A stretch of DNA of 64,000 bases, taken from Verrucomicrobiia bacterium (GTDB lineage: Bacteria > Verrucomicrobiota > Verrucomicrobiia > Limisphaerales > UBA11358). The translations under genes and the position numbers were made by a program. The stretch is from assembly GCA_035605035.1 (NCBI GenBank), contig DATNHI010000106.1, positions 849-64,848 of the forward strand, in the 5' to 3' direction. The notes beneath the pieces are model-generated. The model made no database searches and was not told the origin of the DNA. It worked only from the letters and a program-made list of their open reading frames with translations. Positions 9,887 through 62,377 of this stretch are shown piece after piece (positions within the stretch are counted from its first letter, which is position 1; the number at the start of each line of letters is the position of its first letter).

Positions 9887-10978
9887 GTGAAACAAAAGGC
9901 TTATGCCCGGGCGGGCGTGGATATTGATTTGGGCAACCGGGTCAAATCCACCCTGCCGCAACTGCTCGCCGCCACGCATCGCCGTGAGGTGCTCGGCAAA
10001 GTCGGCGGCTTCGGTGGTTTGTTCGCGCTCGACCTCAAGAAATACCGCGAGCCGGTCCTCGTATCGTCCGTGGACGGCGTCGGCACCAAGCTCAAAATCG
10101 CCTTCGCCATGGACCGGCACGACACCATCGGCGCCGACCTCGTGAACCATTGCGTGAACGACATCGCCGTGCTGGGCGCCGAGCCGCTGTTCTTCCTGGA
10201 TTATCTCGGCACGGGCAAACTCGAGCCGCACGTTTTCACCGAAATCATCAAGGGCTTCGCGCGCGCGTGCTCCGAAAACCATTGCGCACTCATCGGTGGC
10301 GAGACGGCGCAGATGCCTGGCTTTTACCAGAAAGGCGAATACGACGTGAGCGGCACCATCGTCGGCGTCGTCGAAAAAAGCAAAATGCTCAACGGCCAGA
10401 AAACTGTGCGCGTCGGCGATGCGGTCGTTGGCATCGCGTCCAGCGGCTTGCACACGAACGGCTATTCGCTCGCCCGGAAAATCTTTTTCGAGCAATTGAA
10501 ATTGAAACCCACCAGCCGCGTGCCGGGACTGAAAGGCACGATTGGTTACGAACTGCTGAAAGTCCATGTAAGCTACGGGCCGTTGGTGCAAAAGTTAATT
10601 GCAAAGTTCAACAACGTAGCGCAGACGTCTCGTCTGCACAGCAAAAGCAGGCGGGACGCCTGCGCTACTATCAAAGCCTTCGCCCACATCACCGGCGGCG
10701 GGTTTGTGGACAACATCCCGCGCGTTCTCCCGAAAAATTGCGACGTCGTCATCCACAAAGGTTCGTGGGACATGCTGCCGATTTTCGAAATCATCGAAGC
10801 CAAAGGTGGTGTGCCGGAAACCGAGCTTTATCAGGTGTTCAACATGGGCATCGGCATTGTGGCGATTGTGTCGGCGGCCAAGGCAGGCGCGATTTTGAAA
10901 TTCATCCGCAGCCAGAAGCACCGGGCGTGGCTCATTGGCGAAGTGGTGAAGGGCCAAGGCCAGGCGCGGGTGATTTGA
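9887..10978 (+). CDS. purM: phosphoribosylformylglycinamidine cyclo-ligase (AIR synthetase) with an in-frame palindromic insertion
   Basis: AYARAGVDIDLGN...GGFGGLFAL...DGVGTKL...AHITGGGFVDNIPRVLP. GTG start. Confidence 0.9.
   Translation: MKQKAYARAGVDIDLGNRVKSTLPQLLAATHRREVLGKVGGFGGLFALDLKKYREPVLVSSVDGVGTKLKIAFAMDRHDTIGADLVNHCVNDIAVLGAEPLFFLDYLGTGKLEPHVFTEIIKGFARACSENHCALIGGETAQMPGFYQKGEYDVSGTIVGVVEKSKMLNGQKTVRVGDAVVGIASSGLHTNGYSLARKIFFEQLKLKPTSRVPGLKGTIGYELLKVHVSYGPLVQKLIAKFNNVAQTSRLHSKSRRDACATIKAFAHITGGGFVDNIPRVLPKNCDVVIHKGSWDMLPIFEIIEAKGGVPETELYQVFNMGIGIVAIVSAAKAGAILKFIRSQKHRAWLIGEVVKGQGQARVI
10621..10662. repeat. two small GC hairpins inside the purM CDS (in frame)
   Basis: gcagacg-tct-cgtctgc and caggcg-gga-cgcctg. 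Translated as QTSRLHSKSRRDACAT, just before the conserved AHITGGG. Confidence 0.8.
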
Positions 10979-10981
10979 AAG

Positions 10982-11503
10982 ATGATATTGCGGACACCGT
11001 ATCGCTCAAGTCGCCCGTCAATTGACATGCTGGCAGTCAATTGGGCTGTCTTCAGTTTCGTGATGATGGTGGTTTTTGTCATTGGACTTGCGCTGCCGCA
11101 GCAATTCATAAAATTTGCAGTCTCCTTTCCGACAGGATTCATTCTGGCCGGTATTTTTGCGATCAGCTTGCACAGCCTCATAATCTTTCTTTTGTCGCGG
11201 TCCAAAAAACTGCGAACCGCTGCCGCATACACCGATGGAAGGGCGGTCAAAATATTGGAGTACACCGTATCAGCGGTCTGCTGGGTTTTATATTCTTTGT
11301 TGTGGTGGTATGGCGCGCTTGAAGCGACAGCGATTTTTCTTTTCGTTCCAACCTACTTTGTGACGTCGTTAGTAGTTTATCATGTCTGCTTCAACTACTT
11401 CGCGCGCGACGAAATCAACAAAAAGACTCTGTGGGTGTTGGTGGGAAATATCTGGACCCTCGGCCACTACGCCTTGATCTTTTTGAAGGTTCTCAAACCA
11501 TAG
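10982..11503 (+). CDS. hypothetical multi-pass membrane protein (cargo behind purM)
   Basis: 173-aa ORF with several hydrophobic segments. AT-richer than flanks. Starts 3 nt after the purM stop. Confidence 0.55.
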   Translation: MILRTPYRSSRPSIDMLAVNWAVFSFVMMVVFVIGLALPQQFIKFAVSFPTGFILAGIFAISLHSLIIFLLSRSKKLRTAAAYTDGRAVKILEYTVSAVCWVLYSLLWWYGALEATAIFLFVPTYFVTSLVVYHVCFNYFARDEINKKTLWVLVGNIWTLGHYALIFLKVLKP

Positions 11504-11509
11504 TTTTTT

Positions 11510-11585
11510 TCTCACAAACTCAAGCAGCCCGGCGTGGTTCATCGGTGAAGTCGTCAAAGGCAAAGGCGAAGCGCGGGTGGAATAA
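11510..11585 (+). pseudogene. ghost purM 3' end
   Basis: Reads ...AWFIGEVVKGKGEARVE* versus real PurM ...AWLIGEVVKGQGQARVI*. 42/55 nt identical by hand count, same frame and same stop position; several differences are synonymous. Confidence 0.8.
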
Positions 11586-11755
11586 GCCCGAAGTCCGAAT
11601 ACCGAAATCCGACCCGTCCTCCGTAGCAGCACTGCGGAGGGTGGAAAGAAATCCGAATTGCGAAATCCGATCAAGTGAGGCGAGCACTCACGAGCATTTC
11701 GGGCTTCGGGTTTCGGCCTTCTTTTGGAATTCGGATTTCGGGCTTCGGATTTATC
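11586..11755. repeat. composite heptad-periodic inverted repeat (atccgaa / ttcggat units) with a nested cctccgtagcag..ctgcggagg hairpin
   Basis: Left side cccgaagtccgaataccgaaatccga...atccgaattgcgaaatccga. Right side cttcgggtttcgg...ggaattcggatttcgggcttcggattt. Confidence 0.8.
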
Positions 11756-12787
11756 TCAGTAACTCATCCGGTCCAGCTTCACCTTGCCGCGGAAAATCCA
11801 GTAGATGCAGACGGTGTAGGCAATCACCAGCGGCACGCCGATGCACGCGATGATGAGCATAATCTCCAACGTCTTCGGCGAGGACGCGGCGTTGATAATC
11901 GTCAGGCTGTTTTCCGGGTTCGGTTGGCTGAAGACGAGATTCGGATATTGGTCCAGGCCAAACAACGCCATCAGCGTAATCATCGTCGCGCACGATGACA
12001 GGAACGCCTTCCAGTCGCGGCCGTGGTAAAATTCGCGCGGGATGTTGGCGATGGCGAGCATGTTCGCCAGCGCGATGCTGAACAACCAGGGATTTTCCCG
12101 CACGCGCGCCGCCATGTGCGGAACGTAGAGCAGTGTGGCCATCGTCGTGATGGCAGCGCAGATCACGAAGAAAATGATGCTGTTCATCGCCCAGCCGCGC
12201 AATTTGTCGTGGAGCGGGCCTTCGGTTTTCATCAGGCCGTAAATCGCGCCGTGCATCATGAACAACGCGACGGTCGTAACACCGAGCAGCAACGGATACG
12301 GTTTGAGCAAACCCAAAAACGTCCCGGCGAATTCGCCGTTTTTGTCAATCGGAACGCCCCAGGCGATGTTGCCCATCGCTACACCGATGAGCAACGCTGA
12401 CACAAGGCTGCCGGCAGAAAAGCCGATGTCCCACATCTGTCGCCACCAGCGCATCGGTTGTTTGCTGCGGAATTCGATGGCCACGGCGCGAAAGATCAGC
12501 GCCACCAGCAGCAGGACGAAAGCCAGATAAAAACCGGAGAACACCGTGGCATAAACGTTCGGAAACGCGGCGAAGAGCGCGCCGCCGCCGGTGACCAGCC
12601 AGACTTCGTTGCCGTCCCAGACAGGCCCGATGGCATTGAGCAACGTGCGCCGTTCCATATCATCCTTCGTGAACAGGTGGAGCGCGCCGATGCCGAGATC
12701 AAAGCCGTCGAGCATCGCGTAGCCGGTAAACAGCACCCCGACGAGGATGAACCAAGTAGTATTCAGATCAAAATTGGCAGAGTTCAT
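11756..12787 (-). CDS. cydB: cytochrome bd ubiquinol oxidase subunit II
   Basis: MNSANFDLNTTWFILVGVLFTGYAMLDGFDLG is a typical CydB N-terminus. ORF track start 12868 reads through the repeat (SDFGIRISDF) and is rejected. Confidence 0.85.
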   Translation of the reverse strand: MNSANFDLNTTWFILVGVLFTGYAMLDGFDLGIGALHLFTKDDMERRTLLNAIGPVWDGNEVWLVTGGGALFAAFPNVYATVFSGFYLAFVLLLVALIFRAVAIEFRSKQPMRWWRQMWDIGFSAGSLVSALLIGVAMGNIAWGVPIDKNGEFAGTFLGLLKPYPLLLGVTTVALFMMHGAIYGLMKTEGPLHDKLRGWAMNSIIFFVICAAITTMATLLYVPHMAARVRENPWLFSIALANMLAIANIPREFYHGRDWKAFLSSCATMITLMALFGLDQYPNLVFSQPNPENSLTIINAASSPKTLEIMLIIACIGVPLVIAYTVCIYWIFRGKVKLDRMSY

Positions 12788-12965
12788 GGGTGGCAGGAAA
12801 TCCGAAATCCGAATGCCGAAATCCGAAAGAAATCCGAATACCGAATTCCAAAAAAGCGCGGCGCACAATCACTGGCATTCCGGGTTTCGGATTTCGGGCT
12901 TCTTTCGGGTTTCGGATTTCGAGCCTCGGATTTTGGGCATCGGGTTTCGGATTTTGAGTTCATGG
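12788..12965. repeat. heptad-periodic inverted repeat filling the cydA-cydB spacer
   Basis: aatccgaaatccgaatgccgaaatccgaaagaaatccgaataccgaa ... ggtttcggatttcgggcttctttcgggtttcggatttcgagcctcggattttgggcatcgggtttcggatttt. Confidence 0.85.
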
Positions 12966-14419: not shown

Positions 14420-15784
14420 ATGCTTTCGGCAATGAAACTTCTGGTCATCGGTTCGGGCGGACGCGAACACGCGCTGGTGTGGAAACTCGCGCAGTCACCG
14501 CACGTCACCCAACTGTGGTGCGCGCCGGGTAACGCTGGAATCGGACAGGAAATAGTGGGACAGGCTTCCAGCCTGTCTGTGGCAACGAACAGGCAAGATG
14601 CCTGTGCCACGGCACGGGCCGCAAAAAATTCTCCCCTTGTCGAATGCGTCAATATTTCCGCCGGAGATTTGCCAAAGCTTCTCGCGTTCGCGCAGGAGAA
14701 GAAAATCGAACTTACCGTCGTCGGCCCGGACAATCCGCTGGCGCTAGGCATCGTGGATTTATTCCAAAAAAACGGCCTGCGAATCTGGGGTCCGAACCGG
14801 AAGGCCGCGCAGTTCGAGTCGTCCAAGGTTTTCTCGCAGCGGTTCGTGGAGAAATACGGCATCCCAACGGCGCGCGCCGGGACGTTTTCGGTGGCAGGAC
14901 CCGCCAAGGCCTTTGCCGCGTCACTCGGCGGCAAATGCGCCGTGAAAGCCGACGGCCTCGCGCTCGGCAAAGGCGTTCTGATTTGCACGAACATGGCAGA
15001 AGCGAACAAGGCGATTGACGAAATCCTGGTCGGCAAAGCCTTTGGCGCGGCGGGCGCAAAGATTGTCATCCAGGAATTTCTGGAGGGCATGGAAATTTCG
15101 CTGCACGCGCTGTGCGACGGTAAAACGGCGAAGCTTTTTCCGACGTCACAGGACCACAAACGCGCGCTGGACTGTGATAAAGGTTTGAATACAGGCGGCA
15201 TGGGCACCTATTCGCCGACGCCGTTCCTGAGCGAAAAGGAATTGGCGGAGACGAGCCGCAAGATTCTGGAACCGTTCACGCGTGGTTGCGCGGCGGAGGG
15301 TATTGATTTTCGCGGCATTCTATATCCCGGCATCATGCTCACGAAGTCCGGCCCGAAGGTGCTGGAATTTAACGCCCGGCTCGGTGACCCGGAAACGCAA
15401 GTCTATCTGCCGCGGCTGGAAAACGACCTGGTCGAACTGCTCGACGCCAGCGCCAGCGGCACACTCGATAAAATGGAATTAAAATGGAGTCCGGTGGCGG
15501 CGGTTTGTGTGGTCATGGCCAGCGGCGGTTATCCCGGCAGTTACACGAAGGGCCAGCCCATCCTGGGTCTGGCCGAAGCGGCGAGATTGCCGAACACAAA
15601 AGTATTTCATGCTGGAACGGCATTGAAGGACGGTCAAATCGTGACGAACGGCGGCCGGGTCCTTGGGGTGACCGCGCTCGGCAAGGATTTGAAATCCGCA
15701 CAGGCGGCGGCCTATGCGGCAGTTGAAAAAATCCATTTCGACGGCGCGCATTTCCGCCGCGATATCGCGGCGAAGGCGCTTTGA
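14420..15784 (+). CDS. purD: phosphoribosylamine--glycine ligase with an in-frame palindromic insertion
   Basis: MKLLVIGSGGREHALVWKLAQSP (likely start 14432)...CAPGNAG...ATP-grasp core...GGRVLGVTALG. Confidence 0.9.
   Translation: MLSAMKLLVIGSGGREHALVWKLAQSPHVTQLWCAPGNAGIGQEIVGQASSLSVATNRQDACATARAAKNSPLVECVNISAGDLPKLLAFAQEKKIELTVVGPDNPLALGIVDLFQKNGLRIWGPNRKAAQFESSKVFSQRFVEKYGIPTARAGTFSVAGPAKAFAASLGGKCAVKADGLALGKGVLICTNMAEANKAIDEILVGKAFGAAGAKIVIQEFLEGMEISLHALCDGKTAKLFPTSQDHKRALDCDKGLNTGGMGTYSPTPFLSEKELAETSRKILEPFTRGCAAEGIDFRGILYPGIMLTKSGPKVLEFNARLGDPETQVYLPRLENDLVELLDASASGTLDKMELKWSPVAAVCVVMASGGYPGSYTKGQPILGLAEAARLPNTKVFHAGTALKDGQIVTNGGRVLGVTALGKDLKSAQAAAYAAVEKIHFDGAHFRRDIAAKAL
14559..14605. 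repeat. two small hairpins inside the purD CDS (in frame)
   Basis: gacaggc-ttcca-gcctgtc and acaggca-aga-tgcctgt. Translated as GQASSLSVATNRQDACAT in the loop after CAPGNAG. Confidence 0.8.
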
Positions 15785-15816
15785 CCGCGAAATTTTATTA
15801 ATGACCCGGAACGTGC

Positions 15817-17370
15817 ATGTTGGTTGCCCGGCCACTTAATGCCACGATGCTCTCCCGACTCTTCCGCCGCAAATCGCTCGACCAACTGAGTGCCGAGGCG
15901 ATAGCGCCGCAGTTTCAGCTCAAACGCGCGCTCGGGCCGGTGCACCTGACATTGCTCGGAGTGGGCGCGGTCATCGGCGCCGGCATCTTCTCTTCCATCG
16001 GCGACGCGGTGGCGGGTGGGCAGAATCATCCCGGCGCCGGCCCGGCAGTCATTGTGTCGTTTGTGTTGTCGGCGATTGCGTGTGCCCTGGCGGGATTGTG
16101 CTACGCGGAGTTTGCCGCCATGGTGCCGGTGTCCGGTTCGGCTTATACCTATACTTACGCCACGTTGGGCGAACTGGCCGCGTGGATCATCGGTTGGGAT
16201 CTTATCCTCGAATACGCCATCGGCAACGTCGCCGTGGCGATCTCGTGGTCGGCTTACTTTCAGGAACTGCTGCGCGGGCTGGGCCTGCACTGGCCGTTAT
16301 GGCTGGGCGTGGATTTTCGTTCGGCACTGCAGGCCGCGAAGCAGATCGCCGCGGCCAAGGCCGCCGGCATTGATCCGGCGACCCTGGATGCAACGGTGCG
16401 AGAGGCAGCCCAGGCGTTTACGGACGCGCCGCGCCTGGCTGGCGTGCCGCTCATCTTCAACTTACCCGGGTTCGGCATTGTGATGCTGTTGACCTGGATT
16501 CTGGTCATCGGCATCCGCGAAAGTTCCTGGTTCAATTCGGCGATGGTGATTGTGAAGCTCGTCATCCTGGCTTTTTTCATGACTTTGGGCGCGTTCTACG
16601 TGAAACCGGAAAACTGGACGCCATTTGCGCCCAACGGCTGGGCCGGCATCACCAGCGCCGCGGCGATCATCTTTTTTGCTTACATTGGTTTTGATGCGGT
16701 TTCAACCGCCGCCGAGGAAACCCGCCAGCCGCAGCGCAACGTGCCAATCGGCATTCTCGCCAGCCTCGCCGTTTGCACGGTCATCTACATCGTGGTGGCG
16801 GTGGTGCTGACCGGCCTCATACGGTGGGACAAACTGGGCACGGCCGAGCCGCTGGCTACGGCATTTTCCGGGCTGGGGCTGAACTGGGCCGTAGGCATTA
16901 TTTCCGTCGGCGCGCTGGTGGCGAACACGTCGGTGCTGCTCGTCTTTCAGTTCGGGCAACCGCGCATTTTTTTCAGCATGGCGCGCGACGGCTTGTTGCC
17001 GGCCTGGGCGGCAAAAGTTCATCCCCGGTACCGCACACCGCACGTGACGACCATCCTGACCGGTGTGCTGGTCGCGGGCTTTGCCGGGATTACGAACCTC
17101 AACGAAATGCTGGAGCTTTGCAACATCGGTACGCTGTTTGCTTTCGTGCTGGTGGCGACCGGCATCCTGATCCTGCGGCGCACGGACCCCGACCGCCCGC
17201 GATCGTTTCGCACGCCGCTGTGTCCGTGGGTGCCGTTGGCGGCCATCCTTTCCTGCGGCTGGTTGATGCTCAAGTTACCGTGGAAAACCTGGTGGTGGTT
17301 CTTTGTCTGGCTCGCCGTCGGGCTGCTGATTTATTTTCCCTACAGCATGCGGCGGAGCCGGCTCCGGTGA
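15817..17370 (+). CDS. APC-family amino acid permease (cargo behind purD)
   Basis: About 12 hydrophobic segments. GVGAVIGAGIFSSIG and FFAYIGFDAVSTAAEE motifs. Alternative start 15847. Confidence 0.8.
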   Translation: MLVARPLNATMLSRLFRRKSLDQLSAEAIAPQFQLKRALGPVHLTLLGVGAVIGAGIFSSIGDAVAGGQNHPGAGPAVIVSFVLSAIACALAGLCYAEFAAMVPVSGSAYTYTYATLGELAAWIIGWDLILEYAIGNVAVAISWSAYFQELLRGLGLHWPLWLGVDFRSALQAAKQIAAAKAAGIDPATLDATVREAAQAFTDAPRLAGVPLIFNLPGFGIVMLLTWILVIGIRESSWFNSAMVIVKLVILAFFMTLGAFYVKPENWTPFAPNGWAGITSAAAIIFFAYIGFDAVSTAAEETRQPQRNVPIGILASLAVCTVIYIVVAVVLTGLIRWDKLGTAEPLATAFSGLGLNWAVGIISVGALVANTSVLLVFQFGQPRIFFSMARDGLLPAWAAKVHPRYRTPHVTTILTGVLVAGFAGITNLNEMLELCNIGTLFAFVLVATGILILRRTDPDRPRSFRTPLCPWVPLAAILSCGWLMLKLPWKTWWWFFVWLAVGLLIYFPYSMRRSRLR

Positions 17371-17384
17371 GCCAAGTCGTGAAA

Positions 17385-17456
17385 TCGGTCAACGGAAGAA
17401 AAATCCATTTCGACGGCGCGCATTTTCGCCACGACATCGCGGCGAAGGCATTTTGA
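17385..17456 (+). pseudogene. ghost purD 3' end, copy 1
   Basis: ...KIHFDGAHFRHDIAAKAF* versus real ...KIHFDGAHFRRDIAAKAL*. 49/54 nt identical over the terminal block by hand count. Confidence 0.9.
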
Positions 17457-17469
17457 ATTGCGAAAAAAA

Positions 17470-19185
17470 TTACTGTTCGGCAGCTTGCGGCGGAATATTT
17501 GTATAACTGGCGTCTTCATGCACCCGATTGCCGGCAGGGTCAATGATTGTTGCGGTGACAAACACGAGCGTGTGCCGATTAAGAGAGTTTGTTTTGCTGC
17601 CATCAAGTTCTGCAAGCGCGGCGTCTGTTTGAACTTGATTGTCCTTCAGTCCAAAAACCAGCGTCTGATCGTCAAAAAGATTTACTGAATTCGTTGTTGA
17701 TTGCACACGAAATTGAGGCGACACCGTTGGCACGTCAATTTCCTGCCCGGCTGAATTATAAGCTGGTGTCGTGTTTGTAGATTGAGCGTAACCCAAAAAT
17801 TCAACCACCGAAGCGATGACAGGCAATTCGATGGTATAACTGTCAGGCAGCACGCGCGGTATCGCGTCGAGAACCGGTCCCGTTTCAACATTTTCAGTTT
17901 GAGGAACAATGCTGGAAGTGCCATTTGTTTCTTGAAGGCAAAAATTGGTCACGACAGAAATAATCTGTGTTGCCCGCATTTGAACTTGGCGTCCGCTGGT
18001 TAACACCACTTCTGGTTCGGCGAGAGTTTCAACATCATTGCGTGAGCGTAATTGCTTTAACGCAATACGGAAGTTTTCGTCGGTAAGAATACCGGCACTG
18101 GTCGAATCATACCAACCGGCAGATACGTCTTTCGGCATCGTCAGAAATCTTGCTTTGATGTGGATTTGCGGGATGGACGAATTGGTATCCGGACTAAAAC
18201 GCAAATGTGACGATGTTTGCAACGGGCGATTTTTTTCGGCGAGTTCGTCAAGCTGTCGCCGCAAGACGCCGGTTTCACCGCGTAATTTCAGCAATTCGTC
18301 AAATTGGTCTTCTGATAATTTTTTTGCATCGCCAACTTGAGCGAGACGATTTGAATAACTTTCGTTGTCCGTTTGCAATTGCGCGATTTGTTGGTTCAAC
18401 GACGTTTGCTGTTGTTGCAATGCGCCGATTTGTTTTTGCAATTGAATCGAGTAAATGCCGCTGCCAATTGCGGCGACGGCAAATCCAGCGATGAGAATTT
18501 TGTGAATCATAGTCATTCCGAGGGTTGTAGTTGTTAAGGCGACGGTGGTTGAAATTGTAGCGGCCAATCCAACCGGTGCGGATTGGACGGCGTTGGCGGA
18601 AATCAGAACCGCCAGTCCGCTCGCGCCAATCGTCACGTTACGTTTCGATAAAAATTCGCGCAGCCGCTCCACGGCGCGGCTGACGCGCTTTTGCGCGGCA
18701 TCGTCGCTCACGCCGAGCGCCCGGCCAACGGCGCGGAAATCCTGGTTCCGGAAAAAACGGAGCAACAAGGCTTCGCGGTCTTCTTCGCCGAGGCTGTCGA
18801 GCGCTTCATCCAGCGCTGGCCGGATTTGTTCCCAATCTGCGGAAGGTCCGGCATTGGAAAGAAATTGATTCATGGCTTGCCTTTCGTTTGCGAGCCGGCG
18901 CCGGTCATCGCGCAAATGCTTGAGCGCCGCATAGCGCGTGGCACGGTGTAGCCAGCCGGCCAGTGAAGCCTCCACCGCCAGCCGTTCGGCCACCGATCCT
19001 GCTTTGCGCGCCAGGTCCACAAAAACTTTTTGAGCAATGTCTGCCGCCAAATCGGCGGATTCCACCTGCCGCAAGGCGGCGGAATACACGAAGTCCGTGT
19101 GGCGCGTGACGATTTCGCGGAACGCGGCTTCGTCACCGCGCTCGGCGTAGTCGCGGAGCAGTTGGACGTCGGATTTGTCGCTCAC
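17470..19185 (-). CDS. ECF sigma domain / TM / coiled-coil / secretin-like C-terminal fusion protein (paralog A)
   Basis: N-terminal sigma r2/r4 (FREIVTRHTDFVYSAALRQV...LLLRFFRNQDFRAVGRALGVSDDAAQKRVSRAVERLREF). TM segment MIHKILIAGFAVAAIGSGIYSI. Q-rich coiled coil. C-terminus LAEPEVVLTSGRQVQMRATQ...GPVLDAIPRVLPDSYTIELPV...HTLVFVTATIIDPAGN resembles the secretin domain pattern. Confidence 0.75.
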   Translation of the reverse strand: MSDKSDVQLLRDYAERGDEAAFREIVTRHTDFVYSAALRQVESADLAADIAQKVFVDLARKAGSVAERLAVEASLAGWLHRATRYAALKHLRDDRRRLANERQAMNQFLSNAGPSADWEQIRPALDEALDSLGEEDREALLLRFFRNQDFRAVGRALGVSDDAAQKRVSRAVERLREFLSKRNVTIGASGLAVLISANAVQSAPVGLAATISTTVALTTTTLGMTMIHKILIAGFAVAAIGSGIYSIQLQKQIGALQQQQTSLNQQIAQLQTDNESYSNRLAQVGDAKKLSEDQFDELLKLRGETGVLRRQLDELAEKNRPLQTSSHLRFSPDTNSSIPQIHIKARFLTMPKDVSAGWYDSTSAGILTDENFRIALKQLRSRNDVETLAEPEVVLTSGRQVQMRATQIISVVTNFCLQETNGTSSIVPQTENVETGPVLDAIPRVLPDSYTIELPVIASVVEFLGYAQSTNTTPAYNSAGQEIDVPTVSPQFRVQSTTNSVNLFDDQTLVFGLKDNQVQTDAALAELDGSKTNSLNRHTLVFVTATIIDPAGNRVHEDASYTNIPPQAAEQ

Positions 19186-19242
19186 TCACTTATTAAACAA
19201 CCGCGCCAGGAAAAATCCGACAAAGTTTTTCAAAATTTCCTG

Positions 19243-19357
19243 CGTGACGGCTCGGGCGAAAGATCTGAAACCCGCGCAAGCCGCCGCCTGCGCGGCTGTG
19301 CCGAAAATCCATTTTGACGTCGCGCATTTCCGCCGCGACATCGCGGCGAAGGCGTTG
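19243..19357 (+). pseudogene. ghost purD 3' end, copy 2
   Basis: KDLKPAQAAACAAVPKIHFDVAHFRRDIAAKAL versus real GKDLKSAQAAAYAAVEKIHFDGAHFRRDIAAKAL. 46/50 nt over the terminal block; stop lost. Confidence 0.9.
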
Positions 19358-19362
19358 AGGTG

Positions 19363-20988
19363 TTATTGACGTTTTGGAAAATCCCGGCCATCCACAACCG
19401 TCGGCGTCACAAACATCAAGAGGCTTTTTGGCCCAGCCGGCATATTTGTGGATCCAGGCATCCATCCATCGTCGGCCATTTCTGTTGCCATGACAACCGT
19501 CTGGCCGGGAGATAATGTCACTTGATTTGTTAATTGAATTGTCTGCACGTCCGGCTGCGAAGGATCGCCGGTCAATTGGTTTAATTTCGCTCCGAGATTC
19601 AAATTAAAAGTAGAGGAGTTGGTTGAAAAATAGGGCTTCACATCCAGGTTGACGCCGATATTCGTGTAATTCACGCTGGCATTCGCGTTTGTGCCCTCGG
19701 CGGAAAGCACGGGAAACGCCTTGGTCACGGAAATTTGAGCTTGTTCTCCATTGATGGTAACTATTCGCGGTGCGCTGATGACATTGGCGTCACTAGCCCC
19801 TTGCAACGCTTCATTGATGACCTTGAATTGCTGTCCGGTCAGTAAGCCGGTTTTTACACCGTGCGCGTCCGACTTCCACCCAACTCCAAGAACTTGCAAA
19901 TTTTCGGTGGGAAGAGAAACAAATTGTGCCCTCAAGAGAATCTGAATCTTTTCCACTTCCGGCACACTGTTCGTCTCCGTTTGCGCCGCGACCGGTAAAG
20001 CATTTTGCTGCCGCCTCAATTGCGTCATTTCGCCGCGCAATCTCAGAAGTTCCGTCTCGTTGGCGCGCAATTGTTTGTTTTCCTGTTGAAGTGACGCCAG
20101 TTGATTTGTCGCCTCGTCACGCTCCTGTTGCAATTGCTGGATTTGTTCGGTCAACGTCGTTTGTTTTTGACGCAGTGAATGAATTTGGTTTTGCAGTTGA
20201 AACGCATAAATGGTCGCACCAACAGCGGCGGCACCCAAGATGATGAAGAGTGTTTTTTGGATTGTGGTCATGGCGATGGCTTTGGTGGCGGCAATTACGG
20301 CTGAAGTGTGAACAGCGGCTCCGGCCAGAACAGCGGCGGTTGAAATGCTCGCAGCCAGCCCAACCGGCGCGGCTTGAACGGCGTTGGCGGAAATCAAAAC
20401 CGCGAGTCCGCTCGCGCCGATGGTCACGCTGCGTTTCGAGAAAAATTCGCGCAATCGTTCGACCGCTCGGCTGACGCGCTTTTGCGCGGCGCCTTCGGAC
20501 GCGCCCAAAACTTCACCGACTTCGCGCAGATTTTTGTTTTCAAAATAGCGGAGCAGAATCGCGCTGCGGTCAGCATCGTCAAGCGTGTCCATGGCTTCGT
20601 CGAGCAGCGGCTCGATTTCGAACCAGACAGGCGGGACGCCTGTGCCACTTTCGGTCGCATTCATATTGTTCATCTCCACGGCGATTTGCTCGCGCAATTG
20701 GCGGCGCGATTCCTTTCGGATTACGTCAATCGCGGTTCGGCGCGTGACGGCGTAAAGCCACGGCGTCAGGGAACTGACAGGCGGGACGCCCGTGCCACCA
20801 ATCTTGCCGGCGTCGCGCGCCAGATCGGCGAAGACGGATTGCGAAACTTCCTCAGCCAGTTGCGGTGAGCGGACTTGCCGCAACGCGGCGGAATGAACCA
20901 GATCCAGGTGCCGCCTGACAATTTCGGCGAAGGCGTCCTGTGAATTTTCCCGCGTGTATTGCCGTAGCAAATCCAAATCGCTTGTCAT
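19363..20988 (-). CDS. ECF sigma domain / TM / coiled-coil / secretin-like fusion protein (paralog B)
   Basis: Start chosen at MTSDLDLLRQYTRENSQDAFAEIVRRHLDLVHSAALRQV (ATG at 20988). The segment VSRAVERLREFFSKRSVTIGASGLAVLISANAVQAAPVGLAASIS is near identical to paralog A. C-terminus VISAPRIVTINGEQAQISVTKAFPV...IGVNLDVKPYF...LLMFVTPTVV is secretin-like. Confidence 0.75.
   Translation of the reverse strand: MTSDLDLLRQYTRENSQDAFAEIVRRHLDLVHSAALRQVRSPQLAEEVSQSVFADLARDAGKIGGTGVPPVSSLTPWLYAVTRRTAIDVIRKESRRQLREQIAVEMNNMNATESGTGVPPVWFEIEPLLDEAMDTLDDADRSAILLRYFENKNLREVGEVLGASEGAAQKRVSRAVERLREFFSKRSVTIGASGLAVLISANAVQAAPVGLAASISTAAVLAGAAVHTSAVIAATKAIAMTTIQKTLFIILGAAAVGATIYAFQLQNQIHSLRQKQTTLTEQIQQLQQERDEATNQLASLQQENKQLRANETELLRLRGEMTQLRRQQNALPVAAQTETNSVPEVEKIQILLRAQFVSLPTENLQVLGVGWKSDAHGVKTGLLTGQQFKVINEALQGASDANVISAPRIVTINGEQAQISVTKAFPVLSAEGTNANASVNYTNIGVNLDVKPYFSTNSSTFNLNLGAKLNQLTGDPSQPDVQTIQLTNQVTLSPGQTVVMATEMADDGWMPGSTNMPAGPKSLLMFVTPTVVDGRDFPKRQ
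20627..20793. repeat. two copies of the acaggcgggacgcc(t/c)gt hairpin inside paralog B (in frame)
   Basis: 20627-20643 and 20777-20793. Translated on the minus strand as ...SGTGVPPV... and ...GGTGVPPV.... Paralogs A and C lack them at the aligned positions. Confidence 0.8.
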
Positions 20989-21908: not shown

Positions 21909-24122
21909 TTGGCGGTTCGCGACTCACCTTGGACTTTGCGCGGCATGAAAACCATTCTGTTCATTTGCACCGGCAACATCTGCCGCAGCCCGATGGCCGA
22001 GGGGCTTTTTCGCCGGGCGACCGACGGACGCGGGGAATACCGCGTGCTGTCGGCGGGCCTTGGCGCGGCGAACGACCAGCCGCCGACGCCGCATGCGGTG
22101 TCGGCCATGCGCGAACTGGGCATTGACATTACCGGCCACCGCAGCCGGATGCTGACGGCGGGCCTGGCGCAAGAGGCGGATTATATTTTCGGGATGACGC
22201 GCAGCCACGTGGACACGGTCGCGCTGTTGTTTCCGGAGGCGGAGGAAAAGACCTTTTTGCTGCGCGAATTCGACGAAACGCTGGAGCCATTTGAAAAGGA
22301 CATCAGCGACCCGATTGGCAGTTCCTACGAGGTGTATGTGAACTGCCGCAACCAGATCAAGCAGGGCATCGCGTCTCTTTTGAAATTTATGGAACAACAC
22401 GAAACCCCGTCGGCCGCGCCGGCGGCCAAAGCCGTGGCGACCACAAACTTTGCGCTTGGCGCCGACCACGGCGGCTACGAATTGAAAGAGGCGTTGAAAC
22501 AGCATCTGCAGCAACGCGGCTTGAACGTCACGGACTTCGGCGCGAAATCGAAGGAGCCGGCCGACGATTATCCCGACTTCGCCCAACCCGTGGCGCAGGC
22601 CGTGGCTGGCGGGCAGGCGGAGCTTGGCCTGCTCATCTGCACCAGCGGCGTGGGGATGAGCATGACGGCCAACAAAGTGCCGGGTGTCCGGGCCGCCCTG
22701 GTCACCGACGAACCGGCGGCGGCGTTGGCCCGGCGGCACAACGATGCCAATGTGCTCTGCCTCGCCGGCAAATCCACTTCCGTTGAGGCCGGCAAAAAGA
22801 TCCTCGACGCCTTCCTCGACGCGAAATTTGAAGGCGGCCGGCACGAACGCCGCGTCCACAAGATGGAGGCCCGGCCCGTGCCGCCGCAACTCCGTCTGCA
22901 GAGCGTGGATCCGGTCGTGGCCGCCGCCATCGAGCGCGAGCGGCGGCGCCAGCAGGAAAACATCGAGCTGATCGCCAGCGAAAATTTCGTCAGTCCGGCG
23001 GTCCTGGAAGCGCAGGGTTCCGTGCTCACGAACAAATATGCCGAGGGCCTGCCGAAGAAACGCTGGTACGGCGGCTGCGAGAACATTGACACCGTCGAAC
23101 AACTCGCCATTGACCGGGCAAAGCAGCTTTTTGGCGCTGAACACGTGAATGTCCAGCCGCACTCCGGCAGCCAGGCAAACATGGCGGTCTATTTTGCCGT
23201 GCTGAAACCCGGCGATAAAATGCTGACGATGGATTTGAGCCACGGCGGCCATCTGACGCACGGGAACAAGGTGAATTTCTCCGGCAAATTTTTTGAAATT
23301 GTCCACTACGGCGTGCGCAAGGACGACGAGCGGATTGACTACGACCAGCTCGCCGCCCTGGCGCGCGAGCACAAGCCGAGGATGATCACCGTCGGCGCCA
23401 GCGCCTATCCGCGCATCATTGATTTCAAACGCATGGGTGAAATCGCCCGCGAAGTCGGCGCGTATCTGCTGGCCGACATCGCGCACATCGCCGGCCTGGT
23501 GGCGGTGGGAATTCATCCCAGCCCGATTCCGCACGCGGATTTTGTGACGACCACGACGCACAAGACCCTGCGCGGCCCGCGCGGCGGATTGATTTTGTGC
23601 CGCGAAAAAAATGCAAAGGAGATTGATTCCACCGTTTTCCCCGGCATCCAGGGCGGGCCGCTGGAACACGTCATCGCGGCCAAGGCGGTTTGTTTCCAGG
23701 AAGCGTTGCAGCCGTCGTTCAAGGCGTATCAGGAACAGATTGTGAAAAACGCTAAGGCGCTGGCCGAAGGCATGAAGCGCAACGGCTACCGTATCGTTAG
23801 CGGCGGCACGGACAATCACCTGATGCTGGTGGACGTGGGTGTGAAAGACCTCACGGGCAAGGCCTGCCAGACGGCGCTCGACGAAGCCGGCATCACAGTG
23901 AACAAGAACACGATTCCGTTTGAGACGCGCTCACCGTTCCAGGCCAGCGGCGTCCGGCTGGGCACACCGGCCGTGACGACCCGCGGCATGAAGGAACCGG
24001 AAATGGCGGCCATTGCGGACATGATTTCCGAAGTGCTGCTGGACATCAAAAACATCGAGGCGGCGCACAAAGTCCGCGAACGCGTGCGCGAATTGACGGC
24101 GAAATTCCCGCTGCCTTATTGA
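21909..24122 (+). CDS. glyA: single ORF joining LMW protein-tyrosine-phosphatase, ribose-5-phosphate isomerase B and serine hydroxymethyltransferase
   Basis: aa 13-160 [17 protein letters not shown] (LMW-PTP P-loop). aa 178-320 [13 protein letters not shown]...[23 protein letters not shown]...[10 protein letters not shown] (RpiB). aa 328-737 IELIASENF...[10 protein letters not shown]...[13 protein letters not shown] (SHMT). No stop between domains. Likely start 21945. Confidence 0.85.
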
Positions 24123-25537
24123 TTGGGCGGTGGAAAAGCCATGTGCTGTTGTTCCCAAGCGCCAAAATCACCATCAGGTTCGGCGTGCAGTTGTGCATGG
24201 CCGTCCGCGAAACCATAAACCTTGACCCATTCCCCGTTGTACAACCAGGGTTGGTTTTCCCGGACAATGATGGTGGAGCCGGGGTTGGTAATGCTTTTCC
24301 ACGATCCTTGATAAACAATTTCGAGTTGACTCAAATTACTGCGAACCGAATTTAAATCGCCGCCCAAATAGGGTGCGGCCTGATCAAAGTTCGTGGGAAG
24401 CTGATCTTCGTTGGCATTTGCATACATGATCATTCCCATCACCGATTGTTTGGCGTTGTTCATCTTGAACAGGGCGGCCTTTTCCTGTGCCGCATGCAAA
24501 TCAACCTTCTCATCTTCCGATTGCTGTTGGTTTGAGGTTGCGAGATCCGGTGAGGCACGCAGCTTCCCAAGTTCGTTTGTCCGTTGGCGAAGCATTCCCA
24601 CTTCACCCCGAAGCCGCAGCAAGTCGTTGAATTGTTCATCCGTCAGTGATTTGGCTTCGCCAACCTCCGCAAGGCGGTTGGAAAAGCCTTCGTTGTCCGC
24701 ATGCAATTGCGCGATTTGCTGGCGCAAAGACGTGTTTTCGTCACGCAATTGAGTTTGGGTTTGATGTTGAACCACCAAAGCGGTTGTCACGCCAGCCACG
24801 ACCAGCGCGCTGACGCCGAGTTTCAGTTGGGTTGCAGTCATAATTTTCAAAAGTGTAAGGGGGGTTCCTGCGCCGGCGGCAATCGAAGCAGTCGAAAGCG
24901 TCGCGGCCAGGTTTGCGGGCGCCAGTTGGACCGCGTTGGCGGAAATCACGGACGACAGCGCGGTCGCCGTCGTGATGCCGCGTTTGGCAAAAATGGTGCG
25001 GAGCTTTTCGAGCGTCCGTTCCACCCGCATCCGCGCGGCGTTTTCGTTGAGGCCAAGCTTCGCGCCGAGTTCGGCGAATTGCTGGTTCTCAAAATAGCGC
25101 AGCAAAACGGCTTCGCGGTCGGTTTCTCTCAGTTCGTGCATGGCGTCGTCCAGCACCGGGCGAACCATTTCCCAATCGGCTTCGGACCCGGGTTGGGCAG
25201 ACGGGGTGCCCGATCCGCTATTTTGAATCGGTTCACGCATAAATTTTTCCTCGCGGTCGCGCCGGCGATTTTCCGTCCGCACGATTTTCGCGGCGGCAAA
25301 GTGAGTGCTGGTATAAAGCCAGCCGGTCAACGTTTCGCGACGCGCAAGCGAACCCGCCTTGCGCGCGAGGTCGGTGAAAACAGTCTGCGCCACATCCTGT
25401 GCCAGATGCGCATCGCCGTTGACCTGTCGCAATGCGGCGGAAAAGACCAGATTGACGTGCCGCCGCACCAGTTCGGCGAAGGCGTCTTCAGAATTGGTGT
25501 TGGCGTAACAACGCAGCAGTTCGGTATCCGGCGTCAT
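24116..25537 (-). CDS. ECF sigma domain / TM / coiled-coil fusion protein with a different C-terminal domain (paralog C)
   Basis: [39 protein letters not shown]... (ATG at 25537). TM and coiled coil as in A and B. C-terminus ...[27 protein letters not shown]... is not secretin-like. 7-nt convergent overlap with the glyA end. Confidence 0.75.
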
Positions 25538-25658
25538 GTGCAACTTATAGCACCCGCCGAAACGGAAATCGCACAAGAAAAAAGACACGGATTTCAACGA
25601 TTTGCACGAATGGAAACCGCGCAAAGCCGGTAGATGATCATTCGTGTAATTCGTGTCT

Positions 25659-25735
25659 AAAAATCTCTTTGACAACGCGGTCAAGGTGCGGCATTCTAGC
25701 TGTGAGTTGACTGCGAAATTCCCTTGCCGTGTTGA
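25659..25735 (+). pseudogene. ghost glyA 3' end
   Basis: gagttgactgcgaaattccc versus real gaattgacggcgaaattccc (18/20). Reads ...[14 protein letters not shown](frameshift)PC* versus real ...[17 protein letters not shown]. Confidence 0.7.
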
Positions 25736-34185: not shown

Positions 34186-34322
34186 AAGCTCCAAGCACCA
34201 AGCGCCAATCTCCAGAGAAGCGCCAAATTCCGAACTCCAGGAAGTCTGACGGCAACGAGCGCGTTGTTTGGAATTTGAAGTTTGGAATTTCTCTGGTGCT
34301 TGGTGCTTGAATGTTGGAGCTT
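34186..34322. repeat. heptad-periodic inverted repeat in the truB-ribF spacer
   Basis: agctccaagcaccaagcgccaatctccagagaa ... ttctctggtgcttggtgcttgaatgttggagct, followed by a T-run. Confidence 0.8.
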
Positions 34323-37419: not shown

Positions 37420-37516
37420 CATTTACGATTTACGATTTTTGATTTACGATTTGCCGGTGCGCGCAAGTTGGCAAGGAGCGCGTAAATCGTAAATCGTGAA
37501 TCGTATATCGTAAATC
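37420..37516. repeat. heptad-periodic inverted repeat (atttacg units) downstream of rpoD, probable terminator-like structure
   Basis: atttacgatttacgatttttgatttacgattt ... gcgtaaatcgtaaatcgtgaatcgtatatcgtaaat. Confidence 0.8.
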
Positions 37517-41893: not shown

Positions 41894-42097
41894 ACATGAG
41901 GGGGTAGCCTTCGCTTCCGGCGAGTTCCTTTCACCGCTTTCCCAAGCGGTTCAAATCTCCCCGGAGCGGAGAAGAAATTTGTTTTGTGGAACGTTTTCCC
42001 CAAGGTGGCTCGGTTTGAGCCAGACGGGCCACCTCGCAACCTTGGGCTGTTTTCTTCTGCTCCGTTGGAGCATCAGGCGGGACGCCCGTGCTACTTT

Positions 42098-42760
42098 TCA
42101 TTTGCCAGCCAGACTGTCAAGCGCGAAGTTCAATGTCATGATGTTCACGCGCGGCTCGCCGAAAACGCCGAGGTCGCGGCCATTCGTGTTTTGTTGAACG
42201 AGTTCGCGGACGCGTGCTTCCGACAGGCCGCGCGCCCTGGCCACGCGCGGAACCTGCAACTCCGCGTTGGCCACGCTGATGTGCGGGTCAAGGCCGCTGC
42301 CGGAAGCGGTTGCGGCATCGGCGGGAACGATGGCATTGGTTGCGAGGCCGTTGTCGGAACGGCAGGTGGCAATGTTCTGCGTGACGTTGGCGACCAGATT
42401 GGATGAGGTCGGGCCGAGATTGCTGCCGCCGGAATGCGTCGCGTCAAAATTGTTCACGCTCACCGCAGATGTTGGATCGCCTGCGCTCGCCGCCGACGGA
42501 CGCGGATGAAAATATTGCGCGCCGGTGAAATTTTGCGCAAGCATTGCCGAGCCGCGCACCCCGCCGGAACGGTCATGCAGCAAACTGCCGTTGGCCTGGT
42601 TCGGGAACAGCAATTGCGACACTCCAAAAACAACGAGTGGATAGAGACCGCACAAAATGACGGCGAAAAAAAGTGTCGCCACCAGCGACCGGCCGAATTC
42701 AGTCAAAATGGTTTTCATAAATTTTTTGCAGGAGACGACGTGAGGAGTCTCATTTTTCAA
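42098..42760 (-). CDS. kdpC: K+-transporting ATPase subunit C
   Basis: Typical KdpC: TM helix then ...GSNLGPTS...SGSGLDPHIS...NFALD. Likely start 42718 (MKTILTEF). Confidence 0.9.
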   Translation of the reverse strand: MKNETPHVVSCKKFMKTILTEFGRSLVATLFFAVILCGLYPLVVFGVSQLLFPNQANGSLLHDRSGGVRGSAMLAQNFTGAQYFHPRPSAASAGDPTSAVSVNNFDATHSGGSNLGPTSSNLVANVTQNIATCRSDNGLATNAIVPADAATASGSGLDPHISVANAELQVPRVARARGLSEARVRELVQQNTNGRDLGVFGEPRVNIMTLNFALDSLAGK

Positions 42761-46803: not shown

Positions 46804-46894
46804 AATTTTGTCAACGGCCGCGTCAATGCACATGCCGCAATTGATTTTCACGTTGGGTGAACTTGATGACCGCGGACTTCGCGGTTCAGAGGCT

Positions 46895-47045
46895 CGCCCT
46901 TCCAAATGCCTGCGAGATTAGCTGTCGGGCTTGGCCTTGAAAGTGGCCCGGTGATTCCGTTGCCGGAACCCCTGCGCCCCGTCCTCAACTTTGAGGAATT
47001 TGGGTCTCCCGCATCGGCTTGCAGGAAGGCAAACCGATTTAGGCT
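46895..47045 (-). promoter_or_regulatory. ydaO/yuaA-type (c-di-AMP) riboswitch candidate upstream of kdpFABC
   Basis: Minus-strand RNA AAAUCGGUUUGCC..GAUGCGGGAGACCCAAAUUCC...GACGGGGCGCAGGGGUUCCGG...GCCCGACAGCUAAUCUCGCAGGC. Matches remembered conserved blocks GCGGGGGACCCA, GGGGUGAAUCC and CCCGUCAGCUAACCUCGUAAGCG. Confidence 0.65.
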
Positions 47046-47110
47046 GCAACGGCCAAAGTTAATCACAGCTTCCAAAGTTTGTCAACTCCGCCGCAAACGG
47101 GCTGTTTTTA

Positions 47111-48688: not shown

Positions 48689-48693
48689 CGGTT

Positions 48694-49126
48694 TTGGAAG
48701 GGCTGTAAGCCGAATTCTGTCTTCACCCTTGCGGATGGAGAGAACCATTTGTCTCAGCAGCCGATACCCGGAACCCGTCCCGCGTTGGCGGGACCGGAGC
48801 GGGCCGCTCCGGAGTTCCCTATTTGGCCTTGCACCCGATGGGGTTTTCCGTGCCGCGTCGCTTGCGCTTCGCGCGGTGGTCTCTTACACCACCTTTTCAC
48901 CCTTGCCCCTCTGAAATTTCAAATTTCAAATTTGAGATTCCAAAGCGGCGGTCTGTTTTCTGTGGCACTGTCCGTCGGGACGGCTCGCGCCGCCGCCGCC
49001 CGCGTGTATCCTCTGAAATCTCAAATCCGAAATTTGAAATTCCAAAAGGTTACGCGGCATCGCGCCCTTTGGTGTTCGGACTTTCCTCTGCCGGCTCGCG
49101 CCGGCGGCGATTCTCCGCCCTTCCAA
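48694..49126 (-). ncRNA. rnpB: RNase P RNA, bacterial type A
   Basis: Minus-strand GGAAGGGCGGAGAAUCGCC...CAGAGGAAAGUCCGAACACCAAAGGGCGCGAUGCCGCGUAAC...CAGUGCCACAGAAAACAGACCGCC...AAGGGUGAAAAGGUGGUGUAAGAGACCACC...GCAAGGCCAAAUAGGGAAC...GACAGAAUUCGGCUUACAGCCCUUCC. P1 closes with GGAAGGGC/GCCCUUCC. Confidence 0.9.
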
Positions 49127-59354: not shown

Positions 59355-59360
59355 TCCCCA

Positions 59361-59454
59361 AAAGCTAAAGGCTAAATGCTAAAGTCTAAAATACAGCTTG
59401 TGCGCCGGGCGCGGGAAAGAAGTTCAGCCTTTAGCCTTCAGCCTTTGGCCTTGG
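59361..59454. repeat. heptad-periodic inverted repeat (gctaaag / ctttagc units) at a pseudopilin 5' end
   Basis: aagctaaaggctaaatgctaaagtctaaaa ... gttcagcctttagccttcagcctttggccttgg. Confidence 0.8.
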
Positions 59455-60293: not shown

Positions 60294-61225
60294 AAATTTC
60301 AAGCGAGTTCAGAGTCCAGAGTCCAGAGTCCCGAGTCAACCGACTGCGGGCTATGGACTGTGGACTGCCGACTGTGGACTGTGGACTGCGGACTGGCAAC
60401 TGTGAGTCCGCCTTCACCATGGTCGAGATCGCCATCAGCCTGGCGATCATCGGCATTGCGCTCGTCGCCATCATCGGCGTGTTGCCCATCGGCTTGCGCA
60501 CGCAACGCGACAACCGCGAGGAAACCGTCATCAACCAGGACGCCACCGTGTTCATCGAAGCCATCCGCAACGGCCAGTTCGGACTGAATGATTTGACCAA
60601 TTACGTCTATGCCATCACGAATTATTGGGTTTGGTACAACCCCGATGGCACCCCCAACCGGAACGGAGTGAACGGTTACACCTATTCGGCTGCCTCGGCC
60701 ACGCCGCCGTATCCGACGGCCCCGTTCCCCATCAGTAGCGGGACGAACATCATCGGGCTTTTAAGCACACCGGAATACGTTTTTTTAGACAAAAACGGAA
60801 ACGGAAACTTTGTGCCGACGAACAACCTGTTCAGCGGCGGCATCAGCAACCACGTCGTCGCTTATGTCCGCTCCTTGAGCGGGCCGGCGGAGGAGAAACC
60901 GCCGCAGAACAACGACATCGTGGTGGGCGATGCGTTTGCCTACCGCATCCTGTGCGTGAACGCGCCGCTGGCGATGGACACGAATATGTTCACCCTCACT
61001 GCCTTTCAACCCAACCAGCCGCGGTACAACGCGGCGTTGACGGCCAGCCTGCATGAACTGCGGCTGACGTTTCTCTGGCCGCAACTGCCCAATGGCGCGT
61101 TGGGCGCCGGCCACCTGACCTTCCGCACGATGGTCGCCGGACAGGTGTCACAGATTTTCACCAATAACCAGTGGCTGTATTTTTACCAGCCGAATTCCTT
61201 TACCAACGTCGTCGCCGCGCAATGA
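60290..61225 (+). CDS. minor pseudopilin
   Basis: SAFTMVEIAISLAIIGIALVAIIGVLP. Start uncertain (ATG 60290, ATG 60353 or an in-frame GTG); all lie inside the repeat. Confidence 0.65.
   Translation: MKISSEFRVQSPESRVNRLRAMDCGLPTVDCGLRTGNCESAFTMVEIAISLAIIGIALVAIIGVLPIGLRTQRDNREETVINQDATVFIEAIRNGQFGLNDLTNYVYAITNYWVWYNPDGTPNRNGVNGYTYSAASATPPYPTAPFPISSGTNIIGLLSTPEYVFLDKNGNGNFVPTNNLFSGGISNHVVAYVRSLSGPAEEKPPQNNDIVVGDAFAYRILCVNAPLAMDTNMFTLTAFQPNQPRYNAALTASLHELRLTFLWPQLPNGALGAGHLTFRTMVAGQVSQIFTNNQWLYFYQPNSFTNVVAAQ
60305..60396. repeat. heptad-periodic inverted repeat (agtccag / tgtggac units) at a pseudopilin 5' end
   Basis: gagttcagagtccagagtccagagtcccgagtc ... ctatggactgtggactgccgactgtggactgtggactgcggactgg. 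Confidence 0.8.
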
Positions 61226-62283: not shown

Positions 62284-62377
62284 AATTTACGATTTACGAT
62301 TTACGATTTACGATTGGGGAAAAATCGGCAAAGGCCGCTTCCTTCAATCATCAATCATCAATCATCAATCGTAAATC
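62284..62377. repeat. heptad-periodic repeat (atttacg x4 ... aatcatc x3, aatcgtaaatc)
   Basis: aatttacgatttacgatttacgatttacgatt ... caatcatcaatcatcaatcatcaatcgtaaatc. Confidence 0.8.

Follow-up and report, generated by a model that had tools for sequence, protein, structure and literature searches.

How did a gene for an enzyme of purine synthesis come to carry a pair of DNA hairpins in its reading frame? The question is raised by a contig of a soil verrucomicrobium (Verrucomicrobiia bacterium, GenBank assembly GCA_035605035.1, contig DATNHI010000106.1), of which we analysed positions 849 to 64,848, a stretch of 64,000 nucleotides (nt) referred to here as the window. The gene is purM, encoding phosphoribosylformylglycinamidine cyclo-ligase (plus strand, 9887-10978; an open reading frame (ORF) of 363 residues with Pfam matches to AIRS, 1.7e-25, and AIRS_C, 3.4e-22). 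The best solved match of its product is 2z01_A (E = 2e-102). A sequence-only reading of the stretch had proposed that purM harbours an in-frame insertion of a dispersed hairpin-repeat family, and our results bear this out. A segment of 57 nt or 19 codons (plus strand, 10613-10669; residues N243-T261, peptide NVAQTSRLHSKSRRDACAT) lies between ..KFN and IKAFAHITGGG, corresponds to a gap in solved PurM sequences, and belongs to a repeat present at seven sites in the window. The insert is very likely an intragenic, REPIN-like doublet (REPIN, a pair of REPs forming one hairpin) of repetitive extragenic palindromic (REP) units that carry a GTAG tag.

Concerning the protein, the segment is an insertion that is absent from PurM outside the clade. 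Each of the 18 solved PurM sequences shows a gap of 18-19 residues in its place. The stretch equivalent to residues 232-273, 42 residues long here, typically spans 23 residues in a set of 86 diverse representatives of PurM clusters (roughly 40-56% identity), 76 of which have 21-25 residues. The boundaries of the insert were set by ortholog comparison. The sequence-only reading had placed the segment immediately before AHITGGG; the four residues IKAF actually separate the two. The 120 closest PurM proteins (83-100% identity, all from Verrucomicrobiota metagenome-assembled genomes (MAGs)) carry some extra segment without exception, and the sequences of these segments are very different.

The region 10613-10669 reads aac GTAG C GCAGACG TCT CGTCTGC ACAGCAAAA GCAGGCG GGA CGCCTGC G CTAC t. 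The left REP unit (plus strand, 10616-10637) is composed of the GTAG tag (10616-10619), a C, the stem GCAGACG (10621-10627), the loop TCT and the stem CGTCTGC (10631-10637); it is a stem variant in which an A:T pair replaces G:C. The spacer ACAGCAAAA (10638-10646) lies between the two units and forms the loop of the long hairpin. The right unit (10647-10668) is inverted, its minus strand reading GTAGCGCAGGCGTCCCGCCTGC with no mismatch to the family consensus; on the plus strand it appears as stem GCAGGCG, loop GGA, stem CGCCTGC, a G and a CTAC tag (10665-10668). The outer ends of the pair are GTAG and CTAC. Both hairpins had been recognized in the sequence-only reading, and GCAGACG-TCT-CGTCTGC (10621-10637) and (G)CAGGCG-GGA-CGCCTG(C) (10647-10663) are found as it gave them, within the purM ORF. 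It had assigned only the second hairpin to the dispersed family. That assignment stands, with matches at 20628 and 20778, both in frame in a minus-strand sigma-factor-like gene, and at 42074, which is extragenic. However, the first hairpin is also a member: its reverse complement, CAGACGAGACGTCTGCGCTAC, differs from the consensus at 3 of 21 positions, and two of the three differences represent a compensatory change of a G:C to an A:T stem pair. The left hairpin is therefore an inverted family copy, and the insert is an inverted pair of one unit of ~22 nt rather than two independent hairpins.

The minimum-free-energy structure of the 73-nt region is a single 21-bp hairpin with one mismatch. Its folding energy is -39.6 kcal/mol as RNA (z = -8.2) and -21.8 kcal/mol as DNA (z = -6.3), and none of 200 shuffles folds as well. 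On direct reading, the unit is open in five of its six frames; the exception is a TAG that the GTAG tag yields in one frame. No Rfam 15 family matches the insert region at the gathering score. Elsewhere in the window, Rfam matches correspond to a bacterial RNase P class A RNA (minus strand, 48690-49126, 224 bits) and a c-di-AMP riboswitch (minus strand, 46892-47055, 46.7 bits).

The repeat family was searched for in the window with the 21-nt consensus CAGGCGGGACGCCTGYGCYAC, allowing up to 3 mismatches, and 7 sites were found against 0.03 expected by chance. The 11-nt core noted in the sequence-only reading is not significant alone when 1 mismatch is allowed (8 found, 4.1 expected); its four exact copies extend to matches of 21-25 nt (family D18). 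All seven copies display the same anatomy, a GTAG or GTGG tag, a GC-rich stem of 7-8 bp and a 3-nt loop, and the same anatomy is found in 14 position-defined arms from orthologous purM sites. The tag is GTAG in purM and at 42074, and GTGG in purD and the sigma-factor-like gene. In purD (ORF 14420-15784), the family forms a second in-frame doublet (plus strand, 14555-14610), consisting of GTGGGACAGGCTTCCAGCCTGTC, a spacer and CAGGCAAGATGCCTGTGCCAC and encoding (I)VGQASSLSVATNRQDACAT (peptide IVGQASSLSVATNRQDACAT). Two single units, GTGGCACAGGCGTCCCGCCTGT (minus strand, 20627-20648) and GTGGCACGGGCGTCCCGCCTGT (minus strand, 20777-20798), are situated in the sigma-factor-like gene (minus strand, 19363-20988), each read in frame as GTGVPPV (residues 115-121 and 65-71, respectively). 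The remaining unit, CAGGCGGGACGCCCGTGCTAC (plus strand, 42074-42094), is extragenic. The position is a classical one for a REP, between convergent genes and with the CTAC tag 4 nt away from the stop codon of a kdpC-like ORF on the minus strand (42098-42760). The units in the sigma-factor-like gene fall in linkers whose length differs among three paralogs. These paralogs (minus strand, 17470-19185, 19363-20988 and 24116-25684) combine an N-terminus resembling extracytoplasmic function (ECF) sigma factors with a long C-terminal region containing a membrane segment, and REP units are present only in the middle one.

To follow the purM site across related genomes, we used the DNA between ..KFN and xKAFAHITGGG in 80 loci from as many species (subdivision 3, Limisphaerales, Pedosphaera-like). 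Three states were observed. In state A, seen in 18 genomes, the site holds 12-27 nt encoding 4-9 residues (GKSDL, LVGKPDQ and similar). In state B (40 genomes), it is filled with 30-42 nt of heptanucleotide tandem array, the unit of which is genome-specific ((ATTCAAC)n, (AAATTCA)n, (CGCAATC)n and others); these arrays are unstructured and C/A-rich on the sense strand. State C, found in 22 genomes and the window, is represented by inverted doublets of hairpin units, 54-81 nt in length with outer GTAG, GTGG or GGAG tags. By sequence, the doublets fall into some ten types, of which at least seven are mutually unrelated, and all 23 fold at -34 to -63 kcal/mol. The sequence-only reading had named the same insertion in orthologs without the repeat family as the result that would refute it; this is not what we observed, as the insert is not shared as a feature of PurM, its relatives carrying unrelated doublets, heptamer arrays or 4-9 residues. 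Among the 80 genomes the insert sequence of the window occurs in the closest only (L001, L004). Its recurrence in independent assemblies (P0002-P0016; L001) shows that it is not an assembly error. Units from the purM site recur elsewhere within the same locus in L007, L028, L020 and L008, so that each genome seems to carry its own family at this site.

Tandem arrays of period 7 are also present in the window itself, at 11588-11752, 12797-12954, 34186-34309, 37421-37516, 59360-59452, 60305-60404 and 62285-62377. They are mostly inverted pairs in intergenic DNA just after genes, each pair having a heptamer unit of its own (AAATCCG, ATTTACG, AAAGCCT and others). An array of this kind, 33 nt in length, fills the purM loop in 40 of the 80 relatives, the length being kept while the unit sequence changes. 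The possibility that the spacers of the doublets are remnants of such arrays was rejected, as a non-purM doublet of L008 has the same kind of A-rich spacer as purM doublets of its type.

The doublet in purD has a different distribution. It is absent from solved PurD sequences and missing from 41 of 43 orthologs, being confined to the window and L058, where the left junction is identical (CAGGAA directly followed by ATAGTGGG). PurD of L058 is 79% identical to that of the window, and orthologs at 87% identity have an empty site. Clean loss in many lineages, short-patch transfer and repeated insertion are alternatives for this patchy pattern. The spacers of the two doublets differ, with ACAGCAAAA in purM and TGTGGCAACGA in purD. 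The related GACAGGCG type has a TCCAT..A-rich..AGA spacer both in purM (L003 and L005) and at a site outside purM in L008 (4965-5037), a hint that doublets of this type may move as one piece in the manner of a REPIN. Inverted pairs are found in purM (10616-10668), in purD (14555-14610) and in large numbers in the related loci. At the other end of purD, the final 58-110 nt of the gene recur downstream of each of the two following genes of the window (15727-15784, 17399-17456 and 19303-19360), and in L079 such repeats (about 18540-18600 and 19690-19740) bracket a module of a transposase gene and REPs. The arrangement looks like gene cassettes inserted at the 3' end of purD with an att-like duplication.

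Is the hairpin itself maintained? We aligned 21 units, the 14 position-defined purM arms from seven other genomes and the 7 copies of the window. In the tag, G1 and G4 do not vary, and conservation of T2 reaches at least 90%. In the stem, 94% of the cells are paired, 22 cells are changed on both sides, and the loop-closing pair takes all four Watson-Crick types (GC, CG, UA and AU). These pairing and covariation values were matched by none of 500 shuffles, and when the register is slid, pairing drops to 28-43%. The covariation implies that the hairpin is maintained at the nucleotide level, through selection or through hairpin-templated correction. In a census of tagged hairpins, 136 had stems of at least 7 bp compared with 39-56 in controls. 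With 6-bp stems, 47 were found in the real sequences and 83-90 in controls; the background at this length is as high as the signal, and only stems of at least 7 bp are therefore informative. Outside the purM site, 68 of 118 tagged units in the 81 loci lie in ORFs, against a coding fraction of 90%, both figures being based on crude calls (greedy longest ORFs) in which small spurious ORFs inflate the intragenic count. This depletion, which is far short of exclusion, is consistent with selection acting as a filter.

In some related genomes, genes for REP-associated tyrosine transposases (RAYTs) flanked by units with the same core are located a few kb from the purM site. L079 encodes, at 18772-19437 (minus strand), a 222-residue protein that passes the equivalog-level NCBIfam model NF047646, 'REP-associated tyrosine transposase', with 94.1 bits against a cut-off of 80 bits. 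On either side of its gene are GTAGCGGCAGGCGTCC(C/T)CGCCTGCCG and GTAGAGGGCGGCATCCTGCCGCCC, with an inverted copy beyond. In L008, a RAYT ortholog (minus strand, 15550-16200), 82% identical to that of L079, is bracketed by a module of ~170 nt that ends in GGCAGGCGGGACGCCCGCCGCTAC and includes the 11-nt core. Near this gene lies GTAGCGGCAGACATCTCGTCTGCCG, the stem variant of the left purM arm; CAGAC..GTCTG variants of this kind are located at 16485-16509. The PurM proteins of the two genomes are 80-85% identical to that of the window (best tblastn segment). The L079 and L008 loci are REPtrons of the unit family found in the window, and the copies of the window may have been mobilised by a RAYT in their own genome.

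Further RAYT-like genes are present at these loci. One type, encoding a 189-residue protein with an HYH motif, lies directly downstream of purM in L002, L035, L041, L049 and L075, and the protein scores 78.9 bits on NF047646, just below the cut-off. In L002 the gene is flanked on both sides (10733-10852 and 11444-11563) by a doublet of ~110 nt, TTTTGGACTGCGGTGGCAAGCG...GCGCAGTCCAAAA, which encodes the common peptides 'DCGGKRSATPL' and 'SGVALRLPPQSK'. In L079, a third such gene (11294-11914) shows 38% identity to RB11751, a RAYT of Rhodopirellula baltica, and has three direct copies of GTAGCCGCCGACGTCAGTCGGCG on each side (11069-11282 and 11960-12167), a second REP family at this locus.

How, then, would the doublet have entered purM? 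REP units are non-autonomous. A RAYT, which belongs to the HUH/Y1 enzymes and is encoded at another locus of the genome, would cut and copy them in the form of single-stranded DNA hairpins. A REP doublet, or its two units separately, would have been copied into purM, where it may have entered a short loop between elements of the PurM C-terminal domain or taken the place of older repeat DNA there. The result would be the addition of 19 hydrophilic residues at a site tolerating them. The insert would have survived because its 57 nt are a multiple of 3, the frame used contains no stop, and extra residues are tolerated at the site. We consider the insert to be, in all probability, tolerated selfish DNA that serves no function in PurM. 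The involvement of a RAYT and neutrality for the enzyme are less certain than the identity of the insert as a REP doublet.

Several results weigh against this explanation. We could not identify a RAYT-like gene in the window by tblastn with six published RAYT/TIRYT and four clade RAYT queries. The closest relatives showed no empty-site polymorphism that would be direct evidence of mobility. The differing spacers in purM and purD fit two single-unit events or old divergence as well as transposition of a whole doublet. The copy number of seven refers to the 64-kb window. Six of the seven units are intragenic, which is atypical for classical REPs, expected to be extragenic; intragenic members are documented for the GTAG REP superfamily, however, and the location therefore does not exclude membership. 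As for the protein, the site is presumably a surface loop that tolerates extra residues, but the AlphaFold2 model of PurM, built from 37 close orthologs, is of low confidence (mean pLDDT, the predicted local distance difference test, 37.6; pTM, the predicted template modelling score, 0.31).

A separate question is why the doublet sits at this site, and here the variety of the purM site across the 80 relatives suggests an intragenic hot spot for repeats. The loop could be a preferred landing site at which existing hairpin or repeat DNA attracts elements, repeats being replaced time after time. This possibility, which we regard as tentative, is compatible with the identity of the units as REPs and disputes only the reason for their location. 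Doublets or heptamer arrays occupy the site in 63 of the 81 genomes, and all three states (23 doublets of about ten types, 40 arrays and 18 short segments) are placed exactly between ..FN and xKAFAHITGGG. The purD site, in contrast, is unoccupied in 41 of 43 orthologs, and outside the clade the PurM loop has no extra residues. The states A, B and C are also interleaved on a neighbour-joining PurM tree. That tree, however, is based on a single protein of 345 residues with 80-90% identity, the insert having been removed, and is too poorly resolved for counting independent gains. Direct reading of the flanks of the window units revealed no evident common target motif beside the GTAG tags, and selection by itself could funnel survivors to a single permissive loop. 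The precedent is a small one, different REPs having been found at about the same recB site in two Xanthomonas species (PMC3733652).

Two other explanations deny that the insert is merely tolerated. The hairpin could be kept in mRNAs of purine synthesis for a regulatory or stabilising role, such as a processing site, a ribosome pause or a block to exonucleases. The very stable 21-bp stem (-39.6 kcal/mol in the mRNA), the presence of doublets in two purine genes of the window (purM and purD) and of two dimers in purL of Opitutus terrae, and the conservation of the arms with a variable spacer among close orthologs would agree with such a role, as would the formation of sense-strand G-U pairs at two of the three positions where the arms differ. 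Over the 23 purM doublets, however, the mean folding energy is -47.2 kcal/mol for the sense and -48.1 kcal/mol for the antisense strand, the sense strand being better in 11 of 23, and this equal stability argues against a strand-specific role in RNA. The same units are present antisense in the sigma-factor-like gene and in intergenic DNA, no purD doublet is present in 41 of the 43 orthologs, a purM site of 4-9 residues suffices in 18 genomes, and Rfam gave no family for the region. We thus judge a selected RNA element to be improbable. Even less probable, to the point of being hardly credible, is that the 19 residues are a selected, lineage-specific loop of PurM and the DNA palindrome incidental. 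In its favour, about ten orthologs with an overall identity of 90-91% have the same peptide, and some extra segment is found in 120 of the 120 closest orthologs. On the other hand, the segments are unrelated between orthologs otherwise 80-90% identical, the same DNA unit gives other peptides in other genes and frames, and the stem covariation is at the nucleotide level. The REP doublet remains the explanation that we prefer.

Intragenic dimers of GTAG REPs in Verrucomicrobia are of a kind already known since 2013, and our literature search found nothing closer to the purM case than that report. The GTAG-tagged REPs were defined by Di Nocera, De Gregorio and Rocco (2013, BMC Genomics 14:522; PMC3733652), who found the most intragenic copies, about 70 listed, in the verrucomicrobium O. 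terrae; more than half of the intragenic inserts are dimers, adding 20-30 residues. The peptides given for GTAG-19 of O. terrae in Additional file 3 include GTGVPPV, HGRDARAT, TGGTPVP, WHGRPAR and VARASRP, and its dimers include GTGVPPV...HGRDARAT in uvrA and the two in purL (PMC3733652). The unit of the window resembles GTAG-19 in many respects. Both come from the same phylum, are short GC-rich stem-loops with an unpaired GTAG or GTGG tag, and often form inverted dimers inside known genes, including purL of purine synthesis. In terms of the encoded peptides, GTGVPPV is identical, and (R/H)GRDARAT and VARASRP correspond to RRDACAT and VAQASRL here as stem variants. The host, however, is from another order of Verrucomicrobia (subdivision 3, Limisphaerales/Pedosphaera-like MAGs), the host genes are purM and purD, and the stem is CAGGCG/CGCCTG instead of the CGGGCG/CGCCCG implied by the O. 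terrae peptides. Identity with GTAG-19 was judged on these peptides.

With the REPINs and REP-RAYT systems (Bertels & Rainey 2011; Nunvar et al. 2010, PMC2817692; E. coli TnpA-REP, PMC3479197 and PMC8266576), the purM insert shares two inverted REPs that fold as one long hairpin, the GTAG tag that RAYTs recognise and, in the relatives L079 and L008, RAYT genes flanked by units of the same core. Classical REPINs are extragenic, whereas here six of the seven units lie in genes and the window holds no RAYT; replication as one doublet is conjectural for this family, the spacers of purM and purD differing. A further comparison is with palindromic elements that enter coding regions. The Rickettsia palindromic elements (RPEs), reportedly described by Ogata et al. 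in 2000, belong to the Alphaproteobacteria, and the best-known of them (RPE-1, for example) are roughly 100-150 bp in length. To our knowledge, no dedicated transposase is known for RPEs. Like the purM insert, they are palindromic selfish DNA placed in frame in housekeeping genes, adding a peptide and not destroying the protein. RPE sequences of R. conorii end in a CGTC tag (PMC3733652). The purM insert, at 57 nt and GTAG-tagged, is RPE-like in its action and not a member of the RPEs.

As an instance, the purM insert is ordinary; it extends the intragenic GTAG REPs of O. terrae to uncultured Verrucomicrobia of subdivision 3, and to purM and purD. In terms of annotation, the peptides VAQASRL, RRDACAT and GTGVPPV in many verrucomicrobial proteins are repeat-derived and should not be taken for functional motifs. 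The variety of repeats at the purM site goes beyond the literature that we found. We hold it possible, though doubtful, that one codon position of the essential gene purM has been a long-lived landing pad for repeats across a whole order of Verrucomicrobia, with unrelated doublets and arrays repeatedly replacing each other. If true, insertion would be targeted to pre-existing hairpin or repeat DNA, beyond selection for a permissive loop, and the site would be a natural system for following the gain, loss and replacement of REPs and REPINs inside a coding sequence. Together with the flanked RAYT genes nearby, the occupancy of the site would provide a dated, alignable series on REP gain, replacement and loss and on whether existing hairpins are targeted.

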